Assembly (NCBI RefSeq): GCF_023371205.1 | Contig: NZ_JAMCCO010000001.1 | Span: 34,662 to 58,661 of the forward strand | Source: Parvivirga hydrogeniphila | GTDB lineage: Bacteria; Actinomycetota; Coriobacteriia; Anaerosomatales; Anaerosomataceae | Direction of reading: 5' to 3' | DNA length: 24,000 nt | The notes under the pieces: generated by a model | What the model was told of the DNA's origin: nothing | Databases searched by the model: none | What the model saw: the letters and a program-made list of their open reading frames with translations, nothing else | Shown here: positions 5,025-21,503 of the stretch, one piece after another | Layout of the letters: every line of letters starts with the position of its first letter | How positions within the stretch are numbered: position 1 is the first letter of the stretch | Program-made: the position numbers and the translations under genes

Positions 5025-6620
5025 TCAGCGCGGGTTCTTCGGCGGGAAGTCGAGCGCCCGGACGAAAGCGCCTTGGAACTGCGGTGCCGATGCGAGGTCC
5101 AGCGTGCGTATGCTCGCGGCCACGCGGTCCGCCTCGCGTCGCGCGGCGCGCGAGACGCACGCGGCACGAGCGCCCTCGAGCGCCGCATTCCCGACGAACG
5201 AGAACCGCGTCTCGAGGCCGTGGGGCACCATCCCGATGCGCACCAGCGAGGACGCGTCTGCGTGCAGACCGAAGCCGCCGGCCACCACCACGCGCTCCAC
5301 CTGCTCCGCTCTGATGCCGGCCTCGTCGAGCAGAAGCTCGATCGCCGCCCGTATGGCGCCCTTCGCGAGCTGGACGGCCCGCACGTCTTTCTGGGTGAGG
5401 ACGACCGGACGGCCGGCGTCCACCACGAAGGCCCGGACGCCGTCGCGCTCGATCACTCGCTCATCGAGCGGACCGCCCGGCGCTTGAAGCCTTCCGCTCG
5501 GGTCGAGCACGCCCGCGTCCAGCAGAGCCGCAAGCAGATCGAGCGTCCCTGAGCCGCACAACCCGAGCGGCGGCACGCCGCCGATGACGTCGAGCTCGAG
5601 CCCATCTTCCGTCCGACGCACGCGTTCGATGGCTCCTGGCGCGGCGCGCATGCCGCTCGTGGTGCCCGCCCCCTCCAGCGCCGGACCTGCCGCAGCAGAC
5701 GCCGCGAGAAGGCCGGAACCGGTCGCCAGCACGACCTCCGCATTCGTCCCGAGGTCGATGAAGAGCGCGGGCCCTTCGCTGAGCGCGAAGCGCGTCGCGA
5801 CGATGCCGGCGACGACGTCCGCGCCGATGAACGCCGAGGCGCAGGGAAGCGCGTGCACCGAGACGTGCTCGAGCCCCGCCAGCCCGAGCTCAGCCCCCGA
5901 TGCGTCGCGCGCCGCCAACGGCACCCCTTCGTACGGCGCGGCGCCGAGCGGGCCCACGTCGTCGCCGAGGAAGATGCCGCGCATCGCGGTGTTCCCGCAC
6001 ATCACGAGCTCCGAGACCGCAGAGGCCGGAGCCCCGGCGTCGGCCATCACGGCGTTCGCGAGGCGCACGACTTGCGCGACGAGCGGCGCTCGGAGCGCCT
6101 CGAGCCCTTCGTGCTGGACGGCAGCGACGCGCGACATGACGTCGGCGCCCCACGGGAACTGCGCATTCAGCATGCTCCGCGTGGCCTCGACGTCGCCGGT
6201 GGATAAATCGACCAGCGCGAGCACGACCGTTGTGGTGCCGATGTCGAACGCGAGCCCGAGCGACCCGGCCCCCAGGTGCTTTCGGCTGTCCGGCTCCCAG
6301 AAAGATGCCTCCGTCGCGTGCGCGACCGCCCGCACGGGCGCGACGTCCGCATCGTGCACGCGCACGTCTCCGAGCACCCGCGCCCGGCACGCCAGACGAT
6401 GCCCGCTCGCGACCGCATCGACGCCGAGCACGGCGAGCTCCTCCTCGGCGGGCGCCGACAGCGCTCCTTCTGCGCGGACCACGCACCTGCCGCACGTCCC
6501 TACGCCGCTGCACTGCGCATCGATAGGCACGCCTGCCGCCCGGGCCGCCGCGAGGAGCGTGGCGTGCGGCTCGACGCACACGTGCACACCGTGACGGGGG
6601 AACTCGACTCGTGGCGACAA
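5025..6620 (-). CDS. 2Fe-2S ferredoxin-domain / ASKHA ATPase protein (DUF4445; RACo-like reductive activator of corrinoid enzymes)
   Basis: Track ORF 5025..6620. The N-terminus has a plant-type ferredoxin Cys pattern (CSGVGTCGRCVV ... ACRA). ASKHA motifs are LAFDIGTTTVVLALVD, FIDLGTNAEVVL, GLCGSG and VVAGGFG. The start codon is TTG at 6620 with AGAGG about 9 nt upstream; the exact start is uncertain. Confidence 0.85.
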   Translation of the reverse strand: MSPRVEFPRHGVHVCVEPHATLLAAARAAGVPIDAQCSGVGTCGRCVVRAEGALSAPAEEELAVLGVDAVASGHRLACRARVLGDVRVHDADVAPVRAVAHATEASFWEPDSRKHLGAGSLGLAFDIGTTTVVLALVDLSTGDVEATRSMLNAQFPWGADVMSRVAAVQHEGLEALRAPLVAQVVRLANAVMADAGAPASAVSELVMCGNTAMRGIFLGDDVGPLGAAPYEGVPLAARDASGAELGLAGLEHVSVHALPCASAFIGADVVAGIVATRFALSEGPALFIDLGTNAEVVLATGSGLLAASAAAGPALEGAGTTSGMRAAPGAIERVRRTEDGLELDVIGGVPPLGLCGSGTLDLLAALLDAGVLDPSGRLQAPGGPLDERVIERDGVRAFVVDAGRPVVLTQKDVRAVQLAKGAIRAAIELLLDEAGIRAEQVERVVVAGGFGLHADASSLVRIGMVPHGLETRFSFVGNAALEGARAACVSRAARREADRVAASIRTLDLASAPQFQGAFVRALDFPPKNPR

Positions 6621-6706
6621 TCCTGCACGCCTCTCGAAACGCCGTGGCCGTGGTGCGATTCTACCCGCTCGCTCCAGAAACGCGCATCAAGAGCCGACAA
6701 TGGGTG

Positions 6707-9257: not shown

Positions 9258-11618
9258 CTACCGGACGCTCGGCTTGAACCGCTTCAGCATGAGCGAGCTC
9301 GTCACCACGCTGACGCTCGAGAGCGCCATCGCAGCGCCTGCGATCTCGGGCCGCAGCAGACCCAGTGCCGCTACCGGAATGCCGAGCGTGTTGTACCCCA
9401 GCGCCCAGACGAAGTTCTGCCGGATCTTCCGCATCGTCGCCTTGGAAAGCTCGAAGGCTGACACCACGTCGCGCAGGTCGTTTCGGACCAGCACCACATC
9501 GCCCGCTTCGAGCGCGACGTCAGTTCCGGCCCCCATCGCGATGCCCACGTCCGCTTGCGCCAGAGCGGGGGTGTCGTTGATGCCGTCCCCGACCATCGCC
9601 ACCACGCGGCCTTCGTCCTGCAGCCTGGCGACCTCGCTCGCCTTGCGCTCCGGCATGACCTCGGCGAGCACACGCTTCGGGTCGATGCCTGCCTGCTCGG
9701 CGATCGCGCGGGCAGTGCGAGCGTTGTCACCGGTGATCATGTAGACCTCGCGGCCTGAGCTTTCGAGCAACCGGACGACCTCGCGGCTCTCCGGCTTGAT
9801 GGTGTCCGCGACAGCGATCAGCCCTGCCAGGCGTCCGTCGACCGCCACGAGAAGGACGGTCTCGCCGCTGTCCTCGAACGCCTCCACGCTCGCCTCAGCC
9901 CGCGAAAGGTCGATGCCCTCCTCTGCGAGCAGCTTCCGCGTGCCGCACACGACGCGCACGCCCTCCACGGAGCCAGCCACCCCCCGCCCTGGGACAGCCT
10001 CGAACGAGTCCGGCTTGTCGAGAGCAAGCCCACGCGAGCGCGCTCGTTCCACCACCGCATCGGCCAAGGGGTGTTCGGAGGCGCGCTCCAATGACGCAGC
10101 GAGCCGAAGCAGCTCGTCGTCGCTGATGCCGAATGCGAGCGTCCGGGTGACCTGCGGCTTGCCGAGCGTGAGAGTGCCCGTCTTGTCGAAGACGACCGCG
10201 TCCACCTTCTCCAAGCGCTCGAGCGCCTCGGCGGTCTTGAACAGCACCCCGAGCTCGGCGCCCTTCCCGGTGCCGACCATGATGGCGGTCGGTGTCGCCA
10301 GCCCCAAGGCGCACGGGCACGCGATGACGACGACCGCTGTGCCCGCAAGGAGCGCCTTGACGAACGGCGTGACCTCCGCGTACAGGCCGGGGTCCGCGAA
10401 GCGCGGCACGATCAGCAGCCACACCAGGAAGGTCATCGCCGCGGCAGCGAGCACCGCAGGCACGAAGATCGCGGAGATGCGGTCGGCGAACCGCTGCACG
10501 GGCGCTTTCGAGCCTTGCGCCTGCTCCACGAGGCGCACGATCTGCGCAAGCATCGTGTCACGACCGACCTTGGTGGCACGCATCGTGAACGACCCCAGCT
10601 TGTTCACCGTGGCGCCGATCACCGCGTCCCCGGGGTTCTTCTCGACGGGGATCGATTCGCCAGTGAGCATCGACTCGTCCACTGACGAACGCCCCTCCAC
10701 GACCACGCCGTCCACCGGGACCTTCTCGCCCGGCCGCACCACGATGAGGTCGCCGGGGACGACCTGCTCGATCGGCAGGTCGACTTCCGCGCCGTCTCGC
10801 ACGACCCTTGCGGTCTTGGCCTGAAGACCCATCAGTTTGCGGATGGCATTGCCCGTCCGGCCCTTCGCCCGCGCTTCGAGGAGCTTCCCGAGCAGCACGA
10901 AGGTGATGAGCAGCGCTGCGGTCTCGAAGAACACTGGCTCGTTCTCGAGCGCTGGCACGAACGTCGCAGCCGTCGAGTAGAGGTAGGCCGCGCTCGTGCC
11001 GATAGCGATGAGCGTGTCCATGTTGCCGGTCCGCTGCTTGAGCGCGTGCCAGAAGCCGCGGTAGAACTGCCGGCCGGCGATGAGCTGGACCGGGGTCGCG
11101 AGGACGAAGCCCAGGTACTTGGCCACCATCATGGGGTCCCACATGCCGCCGAATACGCGTTCGAGCAGCGCGGCCAGCGCTCTGGGGACGGTCTCCATGA
11201 ACGGCGGCACCATGGAGATCAAGAACAGCGGCACCGAGAGCGCTGCCGAGAACACCAACAACCGCTGCTGGCGGCGCTCGTGCTCTCGCTGGGCCGCGCG
11301 CTGGACGTCTTCTGCTTCGGATACCGCCCCTGGCGCCGAGGACGCCTCTTCCAAGGGCGCGGCGCCGTACCCGGCCCGCTCCACCGCCTCGACGATCTCG
11401 CGCACGGCCACGACGGCCGGGTCGAACGACGCGGTCATCTTCTCGCTCGCCAGGTTGACGTTCACGGCCTCGACGCCCGGCAGTCTGCTCACCGTCTTCT
11501 CTATCACGGCAGCGCACGCGGCACAGGTCATCCCGGTGAGGGCGAATGCGGCCTCCTCAGCCACCTGCTCCTTTTCGCTCGTCGCATCAGATCTCGGCTC
11601 TTCCACCGGTTCCTCCAT
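9258..11618 (-). CDS. copA: Copper-translocating P1B-type ATPase
   Basis: Track ORF 9258..11618. It has one HMA domain ([13 protein letters not shown]), the TM CPC motif ([12 protein letters not shown]), DKTGTLT, SEHPLA and [10 protein letters not shown]. The annotated ATG at 11618 has no good RBS. GTG at 11606 is preceded by GGAGGA at 4 nt and may be the true start. Confidence 0.95.
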
Positions 11619-11645
11619 TCACAGGTGGGCTCTCGCCCACTGATC

Positions 11646-13076
11646 TCACTGAACCACTATCTTCCCGAACACCATGCGCATCCCGCAGTTGAACCCGATC
11701 TCGCCCGGCTCCAACGCTGGAAGCGTGATGGTCACGGGCCCCTCGGTCAGGTCGCGAGCGATACCGAGATCCGGTATCTCGACCACCGAAAGACAGCCCG
11801 TGGACTGCGTGAAGGTGATCTCGGCCGGCACGCCGCGCTTGAGCACCACGATGTCGGGCACGTAGCGTCCCGACGAGGTGTCGATGGTGATGCGCTGCAC
11901 TCCGGCGTCTATCGTGGCCGTGCCGGTCACCGACGGCCCGCTCGCGCCGCCTCCGCAGCACGCGCACGAGTACGACGAGCCGGCTGGCGAGCCGGCCGCG
12001 TCCGCCGTCACGGACGTCCGGCCGCCGTTGCCGCCGCGCGACGCAGCTCCGCCCGTCGGAACCGCACGGATCTCGCCGCTCATCATGCCCATCCCGCACG
12101 TGAGGGTGTACGTCCCTTCGGGCAGCGCGGGGAGGTCGACCGTCGTGGTGCTGAAGGCGGCGAGGTCCACCAGCACCCCGGCCTGCGGCACTGCGAGCTG
12201 GGCCGAGCATGCGTTGTCCTCTCGCCGGTCGACGACGAGCCGCACCGGCCTGCCTGCAGGCACCTCGATGGTCTGGGGCTTGAACTGCACGTTCTCGATC
12301 ACCAGCGACACTTCGGCCACACCGTCGGCTGCGACTGCGTAGGTGCTGCTCGACGAGCTCGGTCCGGTCACCGCGCTCGCGATTCGCGAGAACGACACCG
12401 GCGAGCCGATCAGATTGAGCCCTCGGTCCAGCATCACGAGCCCGAGCACCGCGACCAGCACGGCGGCGAACGCCATCATCCTGCGCTTGAACTGCGCGGA
12501 GAGCAGCCCTGATGCCGCTCCGAAGCCGAGCATCAGGGGCATCGTTCCCAGTCCGAAGCCGAGCATCGCAAGCGCGCCGCCCGCCGCCGAGCCCGCACCT
12601 GCGGCCGCGATCTGCGCCGAGAGCAGCGGACCGCACGGCATGAGCCCCGTCATCAGCCCGAACACCGCCGGCGTGGCCAGGCTCGTCTCGGTCCCACCGC
12701 TCCTGCTGGTGCGACGGAGCCGGCCGAGCGCGTTCATGAGCGGTCTGGGCATGCGCGGCACGAGCCGGGTCAACGCCGGGAACTTGCCCGTCATCTGGAG
12801 ACCGAGCAACACCATGATGATCCCGGCCGCGACGGTGACCCACCCGCGGAAGCGGCCGAGCCCCAACAGCCCTCCGATGGAGCCCATCAGAAGGCCGACC
12901 AGGACGTAGCTGGTCAAGCGTGCAGATTGGTACACGACGTGAGGTACGAGGCGTCCCACGCCGCTCGCGCCGTCGGCGCCCCGCACAGCATAGGTGAGCA
13001 CGAGCGGACCGCACATCGCCACGCAGTGCACGCTCGTGGCGAGTCCGATGCCCACCATGGGCCAGAACAGATTCAT
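11646..13076 (-). CDS. DsbD_2-type membrane domain fused to two cupredoxin-like (Cupredoxin_1-type) domains; metal-handling partner of CopA
   Basis: Track ORF 11646..13115. I place the start at ATG 13076 (MNLFWPMVGIG) because of AGAGGAGGA 4 nt upstream. The membrane half carries VHCVAMCGP and LMPCGPL. The two C-terminal beta domains end in TLTCGMGMMSGEIRAV and GFNCGMRMVFGKIVV. The linker contains SCACCGGG. Confidence 0.85.
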   Translation of the reverse strand: MNLFWPMVGIGLATSVHCVAMCGPLVLTYAVRGADGASGVGRLVPHVVYQSARLTSYVLVGLLMGSIGGLLGLGRFRGWVTVAAGIIMVLLGLQMTGKFPALTRLVPRMPRPLMNALGRLRRTSRSGGTETSLATPAVFGLMTGLMPCGPLLSAQIAAAGAGSAAGGALAMLGFGLGTMPLMLGFGAASGLLSAQFKRRMMAFAAVLVAVLGLVMLDRGLNLIGSPVSFSRIASAVTGPSSSSSTYAVAADGVAEVSLVIENVQFKPQTIEVPAGRPVRLVVDRREDNACSAQLAVPQAGVLVDLAAFSTTTVDLPALPEGTYTLTCGMGMMSGEIRAVPTGGAASRGGNGGRTSVTADAAGSPAGSSYSCACCGGGASGPSVTGTATIDAGVQRITIDTSSGRYVPDIVVLKRGVPAEITFTQSTGCLSVVEIPDLGIARDLTEGPVTITLPALEPGEIGFNCGMRMVFGKIVVQ

Positions 13077-13146
13077 GCTTCCTCCTCTGGAAAGAGACAG
13101 GCCGTATTCCCGCACTCACGAAGCGCGGCACGCAGAGGAGGAGCTA

Positions 13147-13952: not shown

Positions 13953-14139
13953 GCTCTGCTCCCTTCCTGGTGCCCGCCGCGGCGCGGTCGAGCCCTGGCC
14001 TGTGGTGTGCAGAGGAAGAATACCTGAGCCGCTCGCACGCTGCAGCCGAACGCCCGGAGGACTACACTAGCGAACGGGAGCGACCGCTTCATTGCGAGGC
14101 GGGCCCCGCTGGGTCCGACAACCAGGAAGGGAGGACGGG

Positions 14140-14943
14140 ATGCGGGTCTCAGGCAAGACGATCGCGGTCACGGGCGGAGGCAACGGCATCGGGCGCGAGT
14201 TGGTGCTGCAGCTCTTGGACCGGGGAGCCCGCGTGGCCGCGCTCGACATCAGCGCGGAGGCGCTTCAGGAGACCGTCCGGCTCGCAGGCTCCCGGGCAGA
14301 GCGGCTCTCCACCCACGTCGTGAACGTCACCGATAGGGCGGCCATCGAAGCATTGCCGGACGCGATCATCGCAGCACACGGCCAGATCGACGGGATCATC
14401 AACTGCGCAGGCATCATCCAGCCGTTCGTGAAGCTCAACGACTTGGACTACGGCGCCATCGAGCGCGTCATGAACGTCAACTTCTGGGGCGTCATGTACA
14501 TGACCAAGACATTCCTGCCCCATCTGCTCAAGCGGCCCGCAGCGCACATCGTCAACGTCTCGAGCATGGGAGGCTTCCTGCCTGTGCCCGGGCAGACGGT
14601 CTACGGCGCGTCGAAAGCGGCGGTGAAGCTGCTGACCGAGGGGCTGCACTCGGAGCTGACCGCCACCACCGTCTCGGTCACCGTCGTCTTCCCCGGGGCG
14701 ATCGCCACCGACATCTCCAAGCACTCGGGAGTGGAGGCTCCTGCGAGCGCTGAGGCAAAGGCCCCGAAGATCAAGACCACCTCGCCGCAGGAGGCTGCCC
14801 GCACCATCCTCGACGGCATGGAGAACGACGCCTACCGCGTCTTGATCGGGAGCGATGCGAAGATGATGGACCGCCTATACCGCCTGATGCCGGAGCGCGC
14901 CGCGGCGATCATCTACAAGCAGATGCGCTCGCTGCTGGGGTAA
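14140..14943 (+). CDS. Short-chain dehydrogenase/reductase (classical SDR)
   Basis: Track ORF 14092..14943. I place the start at ATG 14140 (MRVSGKTIAVTGGGNGIGRE), preceded by GGAAGGGAGGA. It has the TGxxxGIG cofactor motif, NVSS and the YGASKAAVK (YxxxK) catalytic motif. Confidence 0.9.
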   Translation: MRVSGKTIAVTGGGNGIGRELVLQLLDRGARVAALDISAEALQETVRLAGSRAERLSTHVVNVTDRAAIEALPDAIIAAHGQIDGIINCAGIIQPFVKLNDLDYGAIERVMNVNFWGVMYMTKTFLPHLLKRPAAHIVNVSSMGGFLPVPGQTVYGASKAAVKLLTEGLHSELTATTVSVTVVFPGAIATDISKHSGVEAPASAEAKAPKIKTTSPQEAARTILDGMENDAYRVLIGSDAKMMDRLYRLMPERAAAIIYKQMRSLLG

Positions 14944-15123
14944 GCACGCCAGAGCCCCGCGCCTGAACGAGCGCCACAGCACTCGGCATGCGCCCATGGA
15001 TCATCGCGAGCGGTTCATCGCGGGGCATGGATCGGCCTGCCCGCGCAGCAGCCTCCCGCACATGACAGCACCGAACCAGGCCCCGCTGAGAGTCGCACCT
15101 TCTATCCGAGTCCCGCTGGCGTC

Positions 15124-15882
15124 TTACGGCACCAGCACGTTCGCGAACACGAGCCAGGCGAGCAGCGACTTCGCCGCGAGGCTCAAGAACACGTATGCGG
15201 ACTCGCCGAACAGGTAGTCCTTCCACTTCCCGACCTGCTTGTACTGCAAGAACTGGTTGAGGGCGAAGCTGTTGAAGAACAAGAAGATCGAGACGAAGAT
15301 CCAGTACACGAACGAGGGCGTCAGGTCGCTTGCACCCGGCCCCCACAGGTACACCGCGATCGCCATCCACGGGAAGATGCCCGCGATGCACCCGAAGATG
15401 AACGGCGTCCAGTCCGGCTTCCCGGGCTGCTCGTACTTCTCCATCAGCCAGCCGAAGAGGATCATCGACGCGTTCACACCCGCGATGGCCGTGAGTGCGG
15501 CGATGTCGGTGATGCCGGTGATCGATGCGATCAGCACGACCATGAGCGAGGAGCTGAAGGCGTACTCGATCCAGCGGTAGTAGTTGTGGCTCTTCTTCAA
15601 GCCATCGACGTACCCCCTGAATGCTGGCCCGGCGATGACGAAGTGGGCGAGCGCCGACATGAACAGGAAGAGCGCAACTGCATATCCGAGCTCGTACTCG
15701 AAGTAGAGCTTCGGCTGGCTGAACACGCCCGAGCCGGGCCGCGTGTCGAGCCACGACGCGGTGACCGCCACCTTGTACGAGCGAGTCATCACCACGATGG
15801 CCAGACCCTGGGCCAGGTGGAAGAAGCCCATGACGAGGTTGTAGAGCCTGAGCCGCTTGAACCGGGATTCTGTGTCGCTCAT
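15124..15882 (-). CDS. Heliorhodopsin (7-TM retinal protein, inverted-topology rhodopsin family)
   Basis: Track ORF 15124..15882, with AAGGAG 6 nt upstream of the ATG. The protein is close throughout to my memory of HeR 48C12: FFHLAQGLAIV, MSALAHFVIAG, YRWIEYAFSSSLMVVLIA, IAGVNASMILFGWLMEKYEQP, FGCIAGIFPWM, LFFNSFALNQFLQYK and YVFLSLAAKSLLAW. The Schiff-base Lys (K238), counterion Glu (E106) and the two conserved His (H22, H80) are all present. Confidence 0.93.
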   Translation of the reverse strand: MSDTESRFKRLRLYNLVMGFFHLAQGLAIVVMTRSYKVAVTASWLDTRPGSGVFSQPKLYFEYELGYAVALFLFMSALAHFVIAGPAFRGYVDGLKKSHNYYRWIEYAFSSSLMVVLIASITGITDIAALTAIAGVNASMILFGWLMEKYEQPGKPDWTPFIFGCIAGIFPWMAIAVYLWGPGASDLTPSFVYWIFVSIFLFFNSFALNQFLQYKQVGKWKDYLFGESAYVFLSLAAKSLLAWLVFANVLVP

Positions 15883-15902
15883 GGACGCTCCTTTGTCGTG
15901 TC

Positions 15903-15918
15903 AGGTGCGGCCGCACCT
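15903..15918. promoter_or_regulatory. Perfect 16-bp palindrome AGGTGCGGCCGCACCT, 21 nt upstream of the heliorhodopsin ATG (candidate operator or 5'-UTR hairpin)
   Basis: Read directly: the sequence at 15903-15918 equals its own reverse complement. It sits between the heliorhodopsin RBS and the rest of the 252-nt divergent intergenic region. Confidence 0.35.
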
Positions 15919-16134
15919 CGCGTTGGTGGGCGCCGCGCCTGCATCCAACGCGACCTTGCAGGCGCACGCTTCCATCTATTCCCGTTTCGGGCTTCACCGA
16001 GCGAATGGAAACCTCGGATTCGCCTCGCGACGCTTTCGGCGGAGGGGCGCACGCACGAGCATGATGCACCAATGGGGAACATACGACACGACCGGTGACC
16101 GCCGGACGCACGACCGCTTGATCGAAGGAGCCCC

Positions 16135-17040
16135 ATGAAGCTGAAGCCGTCAGAGGTACTCGCGACCCCCGCAACGATCGCCATCGCGGCCGCAGTGGCC
16201 TGGGCCGGTTCCCAGGGCAGCGCGCGCATCGGCCAGATCCCCGTGTTCGCCGTGGCGGTCGCCCTGGCCTTCTTGGTGCAGATCGCGGCGTTCGTGCCCG
16301 CGTACCTCATGCAGACCGAGCGCTTCTACGACCTCGCTGGCAGCCTCACCTACATCGTGGTTACGGTCCTGACGGCGTTGCTCAGCAGGCCGCTCGACGC
16401 ACGGTCGCTTCTGCTCGCCGCGCTCGTGATCGTGTGGGCTGGCCGTCTCGGGTTCTTCTTGTTCAGACGGGTGCTCAGGGCAGGCAAGGACAGCCGTTTC
16501 GAGGAAATCAAGACCTCGTTCGTGAAGTACCTCAACGCCTGGACCATCCAGGGGCTGTGGATCACCTTGACCGCCGGAGCCGCCCTGGCCGCTATCAGCT
16601 CGACGACGCGGTCCCCCTTGGATGCCTGGGCCGCTGTCGGACTTGCCGTATGGCTTGCCGGTTTCGTGATCGAAGCTGTCGCGGACACTCAGAAGAGCCG
16701 GTTCCGGGCCGACCCCGCGAACAAGGGCCGATTCATCCGCACCGGCCTGTGGTCGTGGTCACGCCACCCGAACTACTTCGGCGAGATCACACTGTGGACG
16801 GGCGTGGCGCTGATCGCCTTCCCCGCCCTGCGCGGATGGCAGCTCGCGACGCTCGTCTCCCCGCTGTTCGTCTTCCTGCTCATCACGCGCATAAGCGGCG
16901 TGCCGATCCTCGAACGCCAGGCCGACGAGCGCTGGGGCGGGCAAGACGACTACGAGGAGTACAAGACGCGCACCTCCGTGCTCATGCCGCTTCCTCCGCG
17001 GAAGCGCGGACGCACCCGGCCCGGCCGTGCAACCAGATAG
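16135..17040 (+). CDS. DUF1295 membrane protein (steroid 5-alpha-reductase / ICMT-like superfamily)
   Basis: Track ORF 16135..17040, with GAAGGAG 5 nt upstream. It has multiple TM segments and the family signature near the C-terminus: QKSRFRADPANKGRFIRTGLWSWSRHPNYFGEITLWTG. Confidence 0.85.
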   Translation: MKLKPSEVLATPATIAIAAAVAWAGSQGSARIGQIPVFAVAVALAFLVQIAAFVPAYLMQTERFYDLAGSLTYIVVTVLTALLSRPLDARSLLLAALVIVWAGRLGFFLFRRVLRAGKDSRFEEIKTSFVKYLNAWTIQGLWITLTAGAALAAISSTTRSPLDAWAAVGLAVWLAGFVIEAVADTQKSRFRADPANKGRFIRTGLWSWSRHPNYFGEITLWTGVALIAFPALRGWQLATLVSPLFVFLLITRISGVPILERQADERWGGQDDYEEYKTRTSVLMPLPPRKRGRTRPGRATR

Positions 17041-17547
17041 CAACTCCTGATCGACAGCCTGCGCTTCGGCACGCAGAATGGGCTGCGCACCGCCACGATG
17101 GGCGAGACGCTCCGGGTTCGCCCTGGCTCGAACGTGCGCGTGTCCATCCGCTTCCACGTGCCGATGGAGAACACCAACGGTGACGCTCCGAAGGTCGATC
17201 ACATCGACTTGATCAAGGGCCTCGTGGGCCCCAAGGCCCTCCCTGGCACTCCCGAGTACCAGAGCGAGGTCAACACGACGACGGCCGTCATCGCCCGCTT
17301 CTCGTCCCCCGACTGGGCCGGGCAGCCGAACAAGGGGACGTGGCACACGGTCTCGTACGTGCTGACGAACGTCGATCACGACTGCTACCTCCGCCTGAGA
17401 GGCACCAACCTCGGCCTCGACGTTCCGAACGAGACGGACGCTCAGGGCAACCCCTTGATCGACGACCTTGTCGGCACGAACGACGGAGCCAAGGCGTTCG
17501 CGGACCTGTGGTTCTATTCGAATCCCATCTTCATCGACGTCCAGTGA
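17041..17547 (+). pseudogene. Probable 5'-truncated remnant of a larger gene (beta-rich C-terminal domain ending DLWFYSNPIFIDVQ)
   Basis: Track ORF 17098..17547. The reading frame is open back to 17041, directly after, and in the same frame as, the DUF1295 TAG stop. There is no RBS before ATG 17098. The peptide (QLLIDSLRFGTQNGLRTATMGETLRVRPGS...CYLRLRGTNLGLDVPNETDAQGNPLIDD...DLWFYSNPIFIDVQ) reads like the C-terminal end of a longer secreted hydrolase-type protein. I am not sure of the family. Confidence 0.4.
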
Positions 17548-19446: not shown

Positions 19447-20055
19447 TTACTCGTCGCCGGGCTTCCAGACCTCCCACACGCGACCCACCAAGTCCGGACC
19501 GGGCTTGAGGACCTTCTTGCCGGGCTCCCACCCGGACGGGGTCACCTCGGCGCCTTTCGTTTCGCGCACGTGCTGGAATGCCTTTATCTGCCGGAGCGTC
19601 TCGTCCACCCTGCGGCCGACCGGTGGCGTCAGCACTTCCATTGCCTGCACGACACCGTCGGGGTCGATGATGAATCGGCCGCGGACGTTGACGCCCGCCT
19701 CGTCGTCGTACACGCCGTAGGCTTTCCCGAGATGGCCGGCGGCGTCCGCGATCATCGGGAACGGGATGCCGCCCTCGATCATCTTCGAGAGCTCTTGTTC
19801 GTCCCAGATCTTGTGCACGAACTGCGAGTCCACACTCACGGCCATGACCTCGACGCCGAGGGCCTGGAACTCGCCGTACTTGGCTGCGACCGCAGAGATC
19901 TCGGTCGGTCAGACGAACGTGAAGTCGCCGGGATAGAAGCACAAGACGACCCACTTGCCAAGGTAGTCCGAGAGCTTCACCTGCTTGAACGAACCCTTAT
20001 GGTATGCAGGAGCCACGAAGTCTGGCGCATTCCGACCGACCATGATGCTGCTCAC
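19447..20055 (-). CDS. Peroxiredoxin (AhpC/Prx1 type) with in-frame TGA at the peroxidatic Cys position: probable selenocysteine peroxiredoxin (PrxU-like)
   Basis: Track ORFs 19909..20163 and 19447..19845 are in the same frame and are separated only by TGA at 19909-19911. The joined sequence is ...[16 protein letters not shown][TGA][32 protein letters not shown]..., which is the universal FYPxDFTFVCPTE active site. I place the start at GTG 20055 (AGGAGG 5 nt upstream). The total of 202 codons is normal for a Prx. Confidence 0.85.
19887..19907 (-). promoter_or_regulatory. Candidate SECIS-like hairpin immediately 3' of the in-frame UGA
   Basis: The mRNA reads UGA-C-CGACCG-AGAUCUCUG-CGGUCG: a 6-bp stem and a 9-nt loop containing G and U. 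The stem starts 2 nt after the UGA, which is closer than in classical E. coli-type SECIS elements, so this is tentative. Confidence 0.35.
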
Positions 20056-20276: not shown

Positions 20277-20852
20277 ATGCCGAGCATCAAGGGCACGAGA
20301 ACCGAGCAGAACCTCTTGAAGGCGTTCGCCGGCGAAAGCCAGGCCCGCATGCGGTACACGTACTTCGCAAGCGTTGCCAAGAAGGAGGGCTTCGAGCAGA
20401 TATCCGCGATCTTCACCGAGACCGCAGACAACGAGAAAGAGCACGCCAAGGTCTTCTTCAAGTACCTCGAGGGCGGCGACGTCGAGATCACGGCCTCCTA
20501 CCCGGCCGGCGTCATCGGCACCACCGCCGAGAACCTGCTCGCTGCCGCCGAAGGCGAGCTCATGGAGTGGGGCACGCTCTACCCGGAGTTCGCACGCGTC
20601 GCCGAGGAGGAAGGATTCCCGGAGATCGCCGCCTCGTTCCGGGAGATCGCGAAGGTGGAGTCCTACCACGAGCGTCGATACCGGAAGCTCCTGGACAACG
20701 TCAACGGCTACACGGTGTTCAAGAAAGACGGCGTCGTGTACTGGAAGTGTCGCAACTGCGGCTACGTGTACGAAGGCGCCGAGGTCCCGCTGGAGTGCCC
20801 TGCCTGCAAGCACCCGCAGGCGTACTACGAGCTGTGGTGCGAGAACTACTGA
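20277..20852 (+). CDS. rbr: Rubrerythrin (diiron four-helix-bundle domain plus C-terminal rubredoxin-like CxxC...CxxC)
   Basis: Track ORF 20277..20852, with GGAGG 5 nt upstream. The peptide is TEQNLLKAFAGESQARMRYTYFASVAKKEGFEQISAIFTETADNEKEHA ... WKCRNCGYVYEGAEVPLECPACKHP. Confidence 0.95.
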   Translation: MPSIKGTRTEQNLLKAFAGESQARMRYTYFASVAKKEGFEQISAIFTETADNEKEHAKVFFKYLEGGDVEITASYPAGVIGTTAENLLAAAEGELMEWGTLYPEFARVAEEEGFPEIAASFREIAKVESYHERRYRKLLDNVNGYTVFKKDGVVYWKCRNCGYVYEGAEVPLECPACKHPQAYYELWCENY

Positions 20853-20931: not shown

Positions 20932-21315
20932 TCAGGACGCACCTTTCACGTGGTCAGTGACGTCGTGAGCGATCAAAAGGACGCCGTATACATCGCCGTC
21001 CTCGCACTTGAGGGGGGTGAGCGAGACGTCCATGAGCCGGCTTCCCCGCTGCTCGGAGGTCGTGTGCGTGTAGCGCGCGGCTTCGCACGTCTGTGCCACC
21101 TGTTCGATCCACGCCTGGAGCGGTTCCATCACCTCGGCGGGATACGCGAGGTCCCGCCAGTGGCTGCCGATGACTTGGACGGGGTCGTCGCCGAGGAACG
21201 CGGCCGCCGCGTTGTTCACGTACAGGTAGCGGCCATCCGGTGTGAAGACGAACACGAGGTCAGGAACGTCAGCGAGGATCTCGGAGATCGCGTCTATCGG
21301 GCTGTAGTCGCGCAT
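20932..21315 (-). CDS. Stand-alone PAS-domain protein (127 aa)
   Basis: Inner part of track ORF 20932..21459. I place the start at ATG 21315 (MRDYSPIDAISEILADVPDLVFVFTPDGRYLYVNNAAAAFLG), with GGAGGG 5 nt upstream. The PAS pattern runs through ...VIGSHWRDL...MDVSLTPLKCEDGDVYGVLLIAHDVTD. Confidence 0.8.
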   Translation of the reverse strand: MRDYSPIDAISEILADVPDLVFVFTPDGRYLYVNNAAAAFLGDDPVQVIGSHWRDLAYPAEVMEPLQAWIEQVAQTCEAARYTHTTSEQRGSRLMDVSLTPLKCEDGDVYGVLLIAHDVTDHVKGAS

Positions 21316-21362
21316 GTGCGCCCTCCGAACTGTCGCGGGTCTCGCTCGTGAGTCGTTCACAC

Positions 21363-21371
21363 ATGATAACA
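21363..21371 (-). promoter_or_regulatory. Candidate extended -10 promoter (TGTTATCAT) for the PAS gene
   Basis: The minus strand reads TGtTATCAT, about 45 nt upstream of ATG 21315. Pattern match only. Confidence 0.3.
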
Positions 21372-21503
21372 CCCAGTCATCATGCGAGCGCTTCTTCTCT
21401 CGGACTGTGGTTGCGCGGGCTCCCCCCGTCTCGCTGTCGAGCGCGGCCCTGTTCTTCATCGCCTCCGGCGAAACCGAGGCCGTCTCCTAGAAGCGCCGAG
21501 GGC

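Follow-up and report, generated by a model that had tools for sequence, protein, structure and literature searches.

The locus described here raises the question of what a heliorhodopsin (HeR) would do in a bacterium that appears to be an anaerobe without a visible retinal pathway. It lies in a 24,000-nucleotide (nt) stretch of DNA, referred to below as the window, whose numbering is used for residues and coordinates throughout, unless that of another protein is stated. A preliminary description of this stretch had placed an intact HeR gene of 252 amino acids (aa) at 15124-15882; these coordinates proved exact, and the strand, which it had left unstated, is minus. The best overall explanation of our results, to which we give a probability of about 0.8, is that the gene would encode a canonical HeR of an anaerobe-type member of the Coriobacteriia, acting as a slow-cycling, non-pumping light sensor with scavenged retinal. 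The gene and its translation signal are the following:

15124-15882, minus strand: HeR coding sequence, 252 aa plus TAA stop (759-nt open reading frame, ORF), from the ORF list, the sequence, profiles and structure
15888-15893, minus strand: Shine-Dalgarno sequence AAGGAG, 5 nt ahead of the HeR ATG, read from the sequence

The HeR ORF runs from ATG 15882-15880 to TAA 15126-15124, and no start codon lies further upstream in the open frame. HeR relatives begin at the same aligned position and carry a purine-rich GAGAGGGG/AAAGGAG element where the window gene has its Shine-Dalgarno sequence. The profile search that had been proposed for this protein returned PF18761 as the sole Pfam family at E<=0.01 (E 7e-96; 320.6 bits with a cutoff of 26.7; profile positions 1-242 of 242), and the NCBIfam HeR equivalog NF038020 was matched with 323.2 bits against a cutoff of 100. 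The full-length alignment with HeR 48C12, previously made by eye, was reproduced with HMMER, which paired residues 4-252 with residues 5-255 of the 6su3 chain (E 3e-78). The lysine, glutamate and two histidines picked out in the preliminary description fell in register in this alignment, with no offset, and family conservation agreed. The Schiff-base lysine K238 in transmembrane helix (TM) 7 (codon AAG, 15169-15171) corresponds to K241 of 48C12, the single counterion glutamate E106 in TM3 (15565-15567) to E107, H22 (15817-15819) to H23 and H80 (15643-15645) to H80; S234 is likewise in register with S237.

We also aligned the window protein with 48C12 and with the translations of 80 HeR genes of species-representative genomes. 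It carried the consensus residue at 77 of the 78 columns conserved at 90% or more, the exception being a conservative change from Leu to M32. All six positions of the lateral fenestration, at which the beta-ionone ring is exposed, or carotenoid site, were kept (F161, C165, G168, F203, N204 and A207), the motif being that of bioRxiv 10.1101/2025.11.27.691015 (in 48C12 numbering, aromatic residues at 162 and 206, small residues at 166 and 210, G169 and N207). The structure prediction that had also been suggested, an AlphaFold2 model from 45 homologues (pLDDT 77.9, pTM 0.76), contained seven transmembrane helices, a beta-hairpin between TM1 and TM2 (strands 37-41 and 59-64) and a short helix at 88-96. 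Foldseek matched this model to 48C12 (6su3) with a TM-score of 0.89 and an rmsd of 2.8 Å, and to TaHeR (6is6) with a TM-score of 0.88, whereas the values for type-1 rhodopsins were 0.53-0.66 at 10-17% identity. In the loops, 11 Lys and Arg residues were counted on the N-terminal side versus 4 on the other side, so that the inverted topology of the HeR family, with a cytoplasmic N-terminus, is predicted.

Two other assignments were rejected. A type-1 microbial rhodopsin (PF01036) was discarded on the exclusive match to PF18761, the low structural TM-scores and the opposite predicted topology, and membership of the viral proton-transporting HeR subfamily (V2HeR3 type) on the complete fenestration motif and the bacterial origin of the closest relatives. 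Judged from its sequence, the window gene is a genuine and intact heliorhodopsin, and it almost certainly encodes a functional one.

The GC content of the HeR gene (0.62-0.63) is below that of the window (about 0.67), and the preliminary description had offered membrane-protein composition as a possible cause. This account held: the dip was confined to codon positions 1 (0.51) and 2 (0.40), as fits a hydrophobic membrane protein, whereas the GC content at position 3 (GC3) was 0.92, at the top of the range of the window genes, and codon usage was native. Horizontal transfer as the cause of the dip was rejected on this GC3 value and on conserved synteny. Compared with L081, its closest homologue at 91% identity, the gene had a ratio of nonsynonymous to synonymous substitution rates (dN/dS) of 0.075. 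Relatives of 74-83% identity gave 0.13-0.27, values that are rough given a dS of 0.5-0.9 and the strong GC3 bias. On codon composition, shared synteny and substitution pattern, we regard the HeR gene as native and under strong purifying selection.

An exact-sequence look-up of the HeR protein gave no record, the best match being 91% identical. Database proteins similar to it at E<=1e-20 numbered 6101. The top matches (74-91% identity, 252-253 aa) come from metagenome-assembled genomes (MAGs) of uncultured Coriobacteriia and Actinomycetota, and several of them (e.g. P0003, P0007 and P0020) are already named 'heliorhodopsin HeR' by NCBI; HeRs of Anaerosomatales rank next, at 63-65% identity. Bulzu et al. 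described a HeR cluster, C5, of Coriobacteriia and Thermoleophilia from sediments, and discussed HeRs in strict anaerobes (bioRxiv 10.1101/2021.02.01.429150, 10.1101/2021.02.16.431466). The find had been called notable; its identification stands but its novelty was overstated, since the homologues run to thousands and both the Coriobacteriia clade and HeRs of anaerobes have been published. The window HeR is a routine addition to an already catalogued clade and not a discovery.

Two side observations concern these relatives. The Coriobacteriia MAG JTS-AC241 has two HeR paralogues on separate contigs, 77% (L012) and 63% (L021) identical to the window protein. Three contigs with actinobacterial-type HeRs (L009, L010 and L030) are labelled Aeromicrobium, Acidobacteriota or Bifidobacterium breve, and L009 also carries a purB 85% identical to the window purB; these odd labels are probably binning or naming errors in public MAGs.

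As to the host, the closest homologues and syntenic loci point to an anaerobe-type member of the Coriobacteriia (Actinomycetota, monoderm). The members of the Anaerosomatales in culture come from the subsurface and are obligately anaerobic, and the paper describing them makes no mention of rhodopsins (PMC9686372). Three window genes already named in the preliminary description were recovered:

5025-6686: RACo, from the ORF family scan
19447-20055, minus strand: candidate selenocysteine peroxiredoxin, with an in-frame TGA (19909-19911) at the peroxidatic-Cys codon in the motif DFTFV-U-PTE
20277-20852, plus strand: rubrerythrin, an anaerobe-typical peroxide reductase (PF02915, E 6e-32, plus a rubredoxin-like domain)

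Together with a flavodoxin-like protein, these genes fit an anaerobic, selenocysteine-using organism. The AhpC-TSA match of the peroxiredoxin begins at profile position 42, right after the TGA, and its GTG start at 20055 is preceded by an AGGAGG ribosome-binding site; no selenocysteine insertion (SECIS) hairpin was demonstrated after the TGA (simple fold, z +0.45). The peroxiredoxin and rubrerythrin genes lie 3.6-4.4 kb from the HeR gene.

Retinal formation by Blh-type enzymes requires O2. None of the 21 window ORFs scanned matched a carotenoid- or retinal-synthesis family, in agreement with the preliminary description, which had seen no blh or crt gene in the window. Elsewhere, HeR genes seldom have blh beside them, and the complete pathway is mostly missing from genomes whose only rhodopsin is a HeR (bioRxiv 10.1101/2021.02.01.429150, 10.1101/2021.02.16.431466). 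From the lack of retinal genes in the window, the rarity of blh and the O2 requirement of Blh, we infer that exogenous retinal would be taken up through the intact fenestration; scavenging from outside by this route is the most economical reading.

The surroundings of the window HeR were compared with the flanks of HeR in its relatives, which covered 10 kb on each side. The genes and the region next to it are:

15883-16134, no strand assigned: divergent intergenic region between HeR and DUF1295, 252 bp, holding a palindrome and inverted repeats
16135-17040, plus strand: DUF1295 membrane protein of the steroid-5-alpha-reductase/ICMT superfamily (PF06966, E 2e-65)
14092-14943, plus strand: classical short-chain dehydrogenase/reductase (SDR), convergent with HeR (adh_short, E 1e-51)

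HeR appears to be monocistronic between the convergent SDR and the divergent DUF1295 gene. The DUF1295 protein gave weak matches to the Steroid_dh and ICMT profiles, and among PDB entries only a marginal one, to the bacterial steroid 5-alpha-reductase PbSRD5A (7c83, E 0.006). Upstream sequence was sufficient for judgement in 16 of the 18 closest species-representative loci, and DUF1295 was divergent from HeR in 8 of these 16 (L001, L003, L008, L010, L011, L015, L016 and L018). It is the most conserved HeR neighbour. The same divergent pair was found in L020, L081, L082 (a 2.04-Mb contig) and L085, and DUF1295 lay near HeR in none of 60 more distant loci. The gene order of L081, namely DUF1295, HeR, SDR and a DsbD-cupredoxin gene, is that of the window.

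The 252-bp region between the two divergent genes must hold both promoters. A perfect 16-bp palindrome, AGGTGCGGCCGCACCT, stands at 15903-15918, 21-36 nt ahead of the HeR ATG, and two 9-nt inverted repeats are interleaved further on (15918-15926/15945-15953 and 15935-15943/15957-15965); about one such palindrome per window is expected by chance, as estimated from base composition, and it is not conserved in relatives. Scans of 14900-16200 gave no site with a sigma-70-like promoter consensus and one terminator-like site, which is at chance level, and the RNA fold of the HeR 5' region was not significant (z -1.36).

In nine close relatives (L001, with the gene at 9430-9945, L003, L004, L010, L011, L013, L015, L016 and L018), HeR is directly preceded by a MarR-family gene on its own strand, in the arrangement DUF1295 <- -> MarR-HeR. 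These MarR proteins share a conserved N-terminal Cys (LLC[AST]Y) and may be OhrR-like redox sensors. No MarR gene of this kind was found in the window (best tblastn E 0.04), where the gap measures only 252 bp. DegV adjoins DUF1295 in L003, L011 and L085, and a Fur-family regulator followed by the catalase-peroxidase KatG stands directly downstream of HeR, co-directionally, in L008 (2119-4853) and L014 (10825-13603). A small AhpC/TSA-type redoxin with an in-frame TGA (U-P-F-C) was found in L001 (7969-8448), L002 (7213-7689) and L005 (9441-9920); in L002 and L005 it directly precedes HeR on its strand, at a distance of 17-33 nt, whereas in L001 it adjoins DUF1295.

Among side observations on these loci, the U-P-F-C redoxin is a second selenoprotein-type redox gene linked to the HeR locus in the clade. 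A fusion of an NmrA-like NAD(P)-binding domain with DUF2867 (about 490-510 aa) adjoins HeR in eight loci, six of them more distant actinobacterial ones with HeR identities of 48-57% (L032, L039, L042, L060, L063 and L065) and two from the close clade (L012, 77%, and L025, 64%).

Chazan et al. listed DegV, DUF2177, DUF1295, AhpC/TSA and SOUL as HeR neighbours, and Bulzu et al. listed adh_short along with redox and two-component genes; genes for oxidative stress, SDRs, DUF1295 and two-component systems are on record beside HeRs (bioRxiv 10.1101/2021.02.01.429150, 10.1101/2021.02.16.431466). The neighbours in the window and in its relatives match these statistics, and they agree with ties of HeRs to lipid remodelling and oxidative stress in the literature. 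In Chlamydomonas, DUF1295 and DUF2177 are among the SAK1-dependent genes of singlet-oxygen acclimation (PMC4067076); the HeR neighbour study mentions neither singlet oxygen nor Chlamydomonas. A supposed membership of DUF1295 in the sigma-E singlet-oxygen operon of Rhodobacter sphaeroides (RSP1088) turned out to be wrong, RSP1088 being a 186-aa lipoprotein-like protein.

Within the overall explanation, the window HeR is probably not a transporter but has a sensory or regulatory role. By analogy with its family, it would bind all-trans-retinal, which light would photo-isomerise while the Schiff-base proton moved only within the protein; the HeR would then stay in a long-lived signalling state, with no net ion transport, and would alter the activity of a partner via positively charged cytoplasmic loops. 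The genomic context suggests that light could serve an oxygen-sensitive bacterium as a proxy for oxic, photo-oxidising surface conditions, and that the output would most likely be membrane or peroxide protection. A link of this output to DUF1295, the best partner candidate, or to oxidative stress is proposed tentatively. It is a speculative further step that HeR and the divergent DUF1295 might form a light-triggered membrane-protection module in anaerobic, selenoprotein-using Coriobacteriia. By capturing light with retinal obtained from outside, the module would alert an oxygen-sensitive cell to photo-oxidative danger and turn on lipid modification that depends on DUF1295; the Cys-bearing MarR regulator, DegV, selenocysteine redoxins or Fur/KatG would be further members in relatives. 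Such a module fits the place of DUF1295 and DUF2177 both among published HeR neighbours and among the singlet-oxygen-acclimation genes of Chlamydomonas.

Several observations weigh against this explanation. DUF1295 is divergent from HeR and not in one operon with it, and roughly half of the close relatives lack it beside HeR. An alignment of the HeR-DUF1295 intergenic region from six loci showed nothing conserved beyond the ribosome-binding site, and the redox neighbours of HeR vary between loci. The ORF family scan found no gene for glutamine synthetase, photolyase or an OmrDE-type ABC exporter in the window. Finally, the HeR relatives come from sediment or subsurface settings, in which light may be scarce.

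Chazan et al. put forward a light-dependent activity of HeR itself, directed at membrane lipids or similar molecules; DUF1295 and DegV would then work in the same pathway instead of being partners under HeR regulation. DUF1295 adjoins HeR in the window, DegV and DUF1295 are adjacent in the three loci named above, and crystal structures of HeRs have shown lipids within the fenestration. We nevertheless consider this published hypothesis unlikely for the window protein: catalytic residues or activity have never been shown for any HeR, DegV and DUF2177 were absent from the window in the ORF family scan, and the experimentally supported functions of HeRs are all regulation of a bound partner.

A two-antenna harvester is similarly improbable, although it could coexist with the sensor model. 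Here, a xanthophyll of outside origin would sit in the fenestration and transfer energy to retinal (Kornilov et al. 2025, preprint), which would extend sensitivity in the dim light of sediments. All six positions of the carotenoid-site motif are present, but the same motif occurs in 91% of HeRs and hence says nothing specific about the window protein, and the carotenoid claim for HeRs consists of docking and motif statistics in a preprint.

Proton transport of the viral type is very unlikely, even though one HeR subgroup does transport protons (PMC9448325), because the fenestration motif is kept in the window protein whereas the viral subfamily is reported to lack it (bioRxiv 10.1101/2025.11.27.691015). 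The window protein moreover groups with 48C12 (52-53% identity, TM-score 0.89), for which no transport is reported, and its gene has bacterial neighbours, unlike those of viral HeRs. A last alternative is that the gene is a relic without function, or a contaminant from assembly or binning, the host being an anaerobe that lives in the dark and has no access to retinal; this would agree with the lack of retinal-synthesis genes in the window, the O2 requirement of Blh-type retinal formation and the obligately anaerobic subsurface life of cultured Anaerosomatales, but is hardly credible for an intact ORF with a good ribosome-binding site, 77 of 78 conserved residues, a dN/dS of 0.075, a GC3 of 0.92 like that of its neighbours and a gene order that recurs in independent assemblies. 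Both of these alternatives are disfavoured by the clade to which the protein belongs and its intact motif, and by the purifying selection and conserved synteny of its gene.

For the SDR, the ATG at 14140 is probably the true start. Family searches did not indicate a substrate, notably as regards retinol dehydrogenase: all NCBIfam matches were below their cutoffs and the PDB matches were generic SDRs. This SDR is kept at its position in L081 (88%) and L001 (73%) only. On the minus strand at 9258-13115 there is a copper-handling-like cluster, in which a fusion of DsbD_2 membrane and cupredoxin domains stands beside a P-type ATPase with an HMA domain; the same pair adjoins the SDR in L081. Just downstream of DUF1295, a 149-aa ORF (17098-17547, plus strand) has native-like GC3, no Pfam or NCBIfam match and no homologue near HeR in 80 loci (L001-L080). 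It looks like the C-terminal portion of a larger soluble protein, ending in ...DLWFYSNPIFIDVQ, and may be a gene fragment. A small PAS protein at 20932-21486 lacks the LOV motif NCRFLQ and so is no obvious second photoreceptor. Scans of the window gave no Rfam match at gathering thresholds and no tRNA or tmRNA.

A single sequence added to a family of thousands, in a catalogued clade, changes little by itself. Its modest value is that of a clean, minimal test case for what HeRs do, in an anaerobe without a visible retinal pathway: a HeR that appears to be monocistronic and is strongly constrained by purifying selection, head-to-head with DUF1295 and among peroxide-defence genes. The main interest lies in the conserved HeR-DUF1295 pairing and its redox and selenoprotein surroundings. 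If the link between the two were true, it would add a fourth partner class to the family and would give a physiological rationale for HeRs in anaerobes, with light as a signal of oxidative danger.

Compared with known systems, the window HeR is closest among HeRs of known structure to 48C12, from a freshwater actinobacterial fosmid (6su3, 6su4, 6uh3 and 9ljj), with 52-53% identity over the full length (E ~3e-78). In 48C12 numbering, the identical residues include K241, E107, H23, H80, S237, S76, N101, R104, W105, Y108, N138, M141, E149 and E230, plus the fenestration positions. The window protein is 3 residues shorter, with one 1-aa indel in the TM1-TM2 hairpin, another following TM2 and a further two in the TM5-TM6 loop. 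The hosts differ, that of 48C12 being an aerobic freshwater actinobacterium and that of the window an anaerobe-type member of the Coriobacteriia. TaHeR of the Thermoplasmatales archaeon SG8-52-1 (6is6 and 7u55) is 41-42% identical (E 5e-59, TM-score 0.88); its host is, like that of the window, a sediment anaerobe without an obvious retinal pathway, but is archaeal. The eukaryotic Cv06 HeR (9vfc) was matched in the PDB with E 1e-43.

With the HeRs of Coriobacteriia MAGs (e.g. UBA2272, L001; Bulzu cluster C5), the window gene has the divergent DUF1295 in common. The SDR is common to the window, L081 and L001, and the DsbD-cupredoxin gene to the window and L081, whereas the window lacks the MarR gene that nine close relatives carry directly upstream of HeR. 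Partners have been demonstrated for three HeRs, namely glutamine synthetase for AbHeR (PMC9529153), photolyase for TfHeR (PMC9769723) and the ABC exporter OmrDE for OcHeR (PMC11109279), and charged cytoplasmic loops mediate this regulation (PMC11109279, PMC9529153, PMC9769723). The window HeR keeps basic residues in cytoplasmic loops 1 and 3 (R88/K95/K96 and K215/K219/K221/D222) and an Asp-Trp pair in loop 2 (D157-W158), at positions comparable to the binding residues of OcHeR (PMC11109279).

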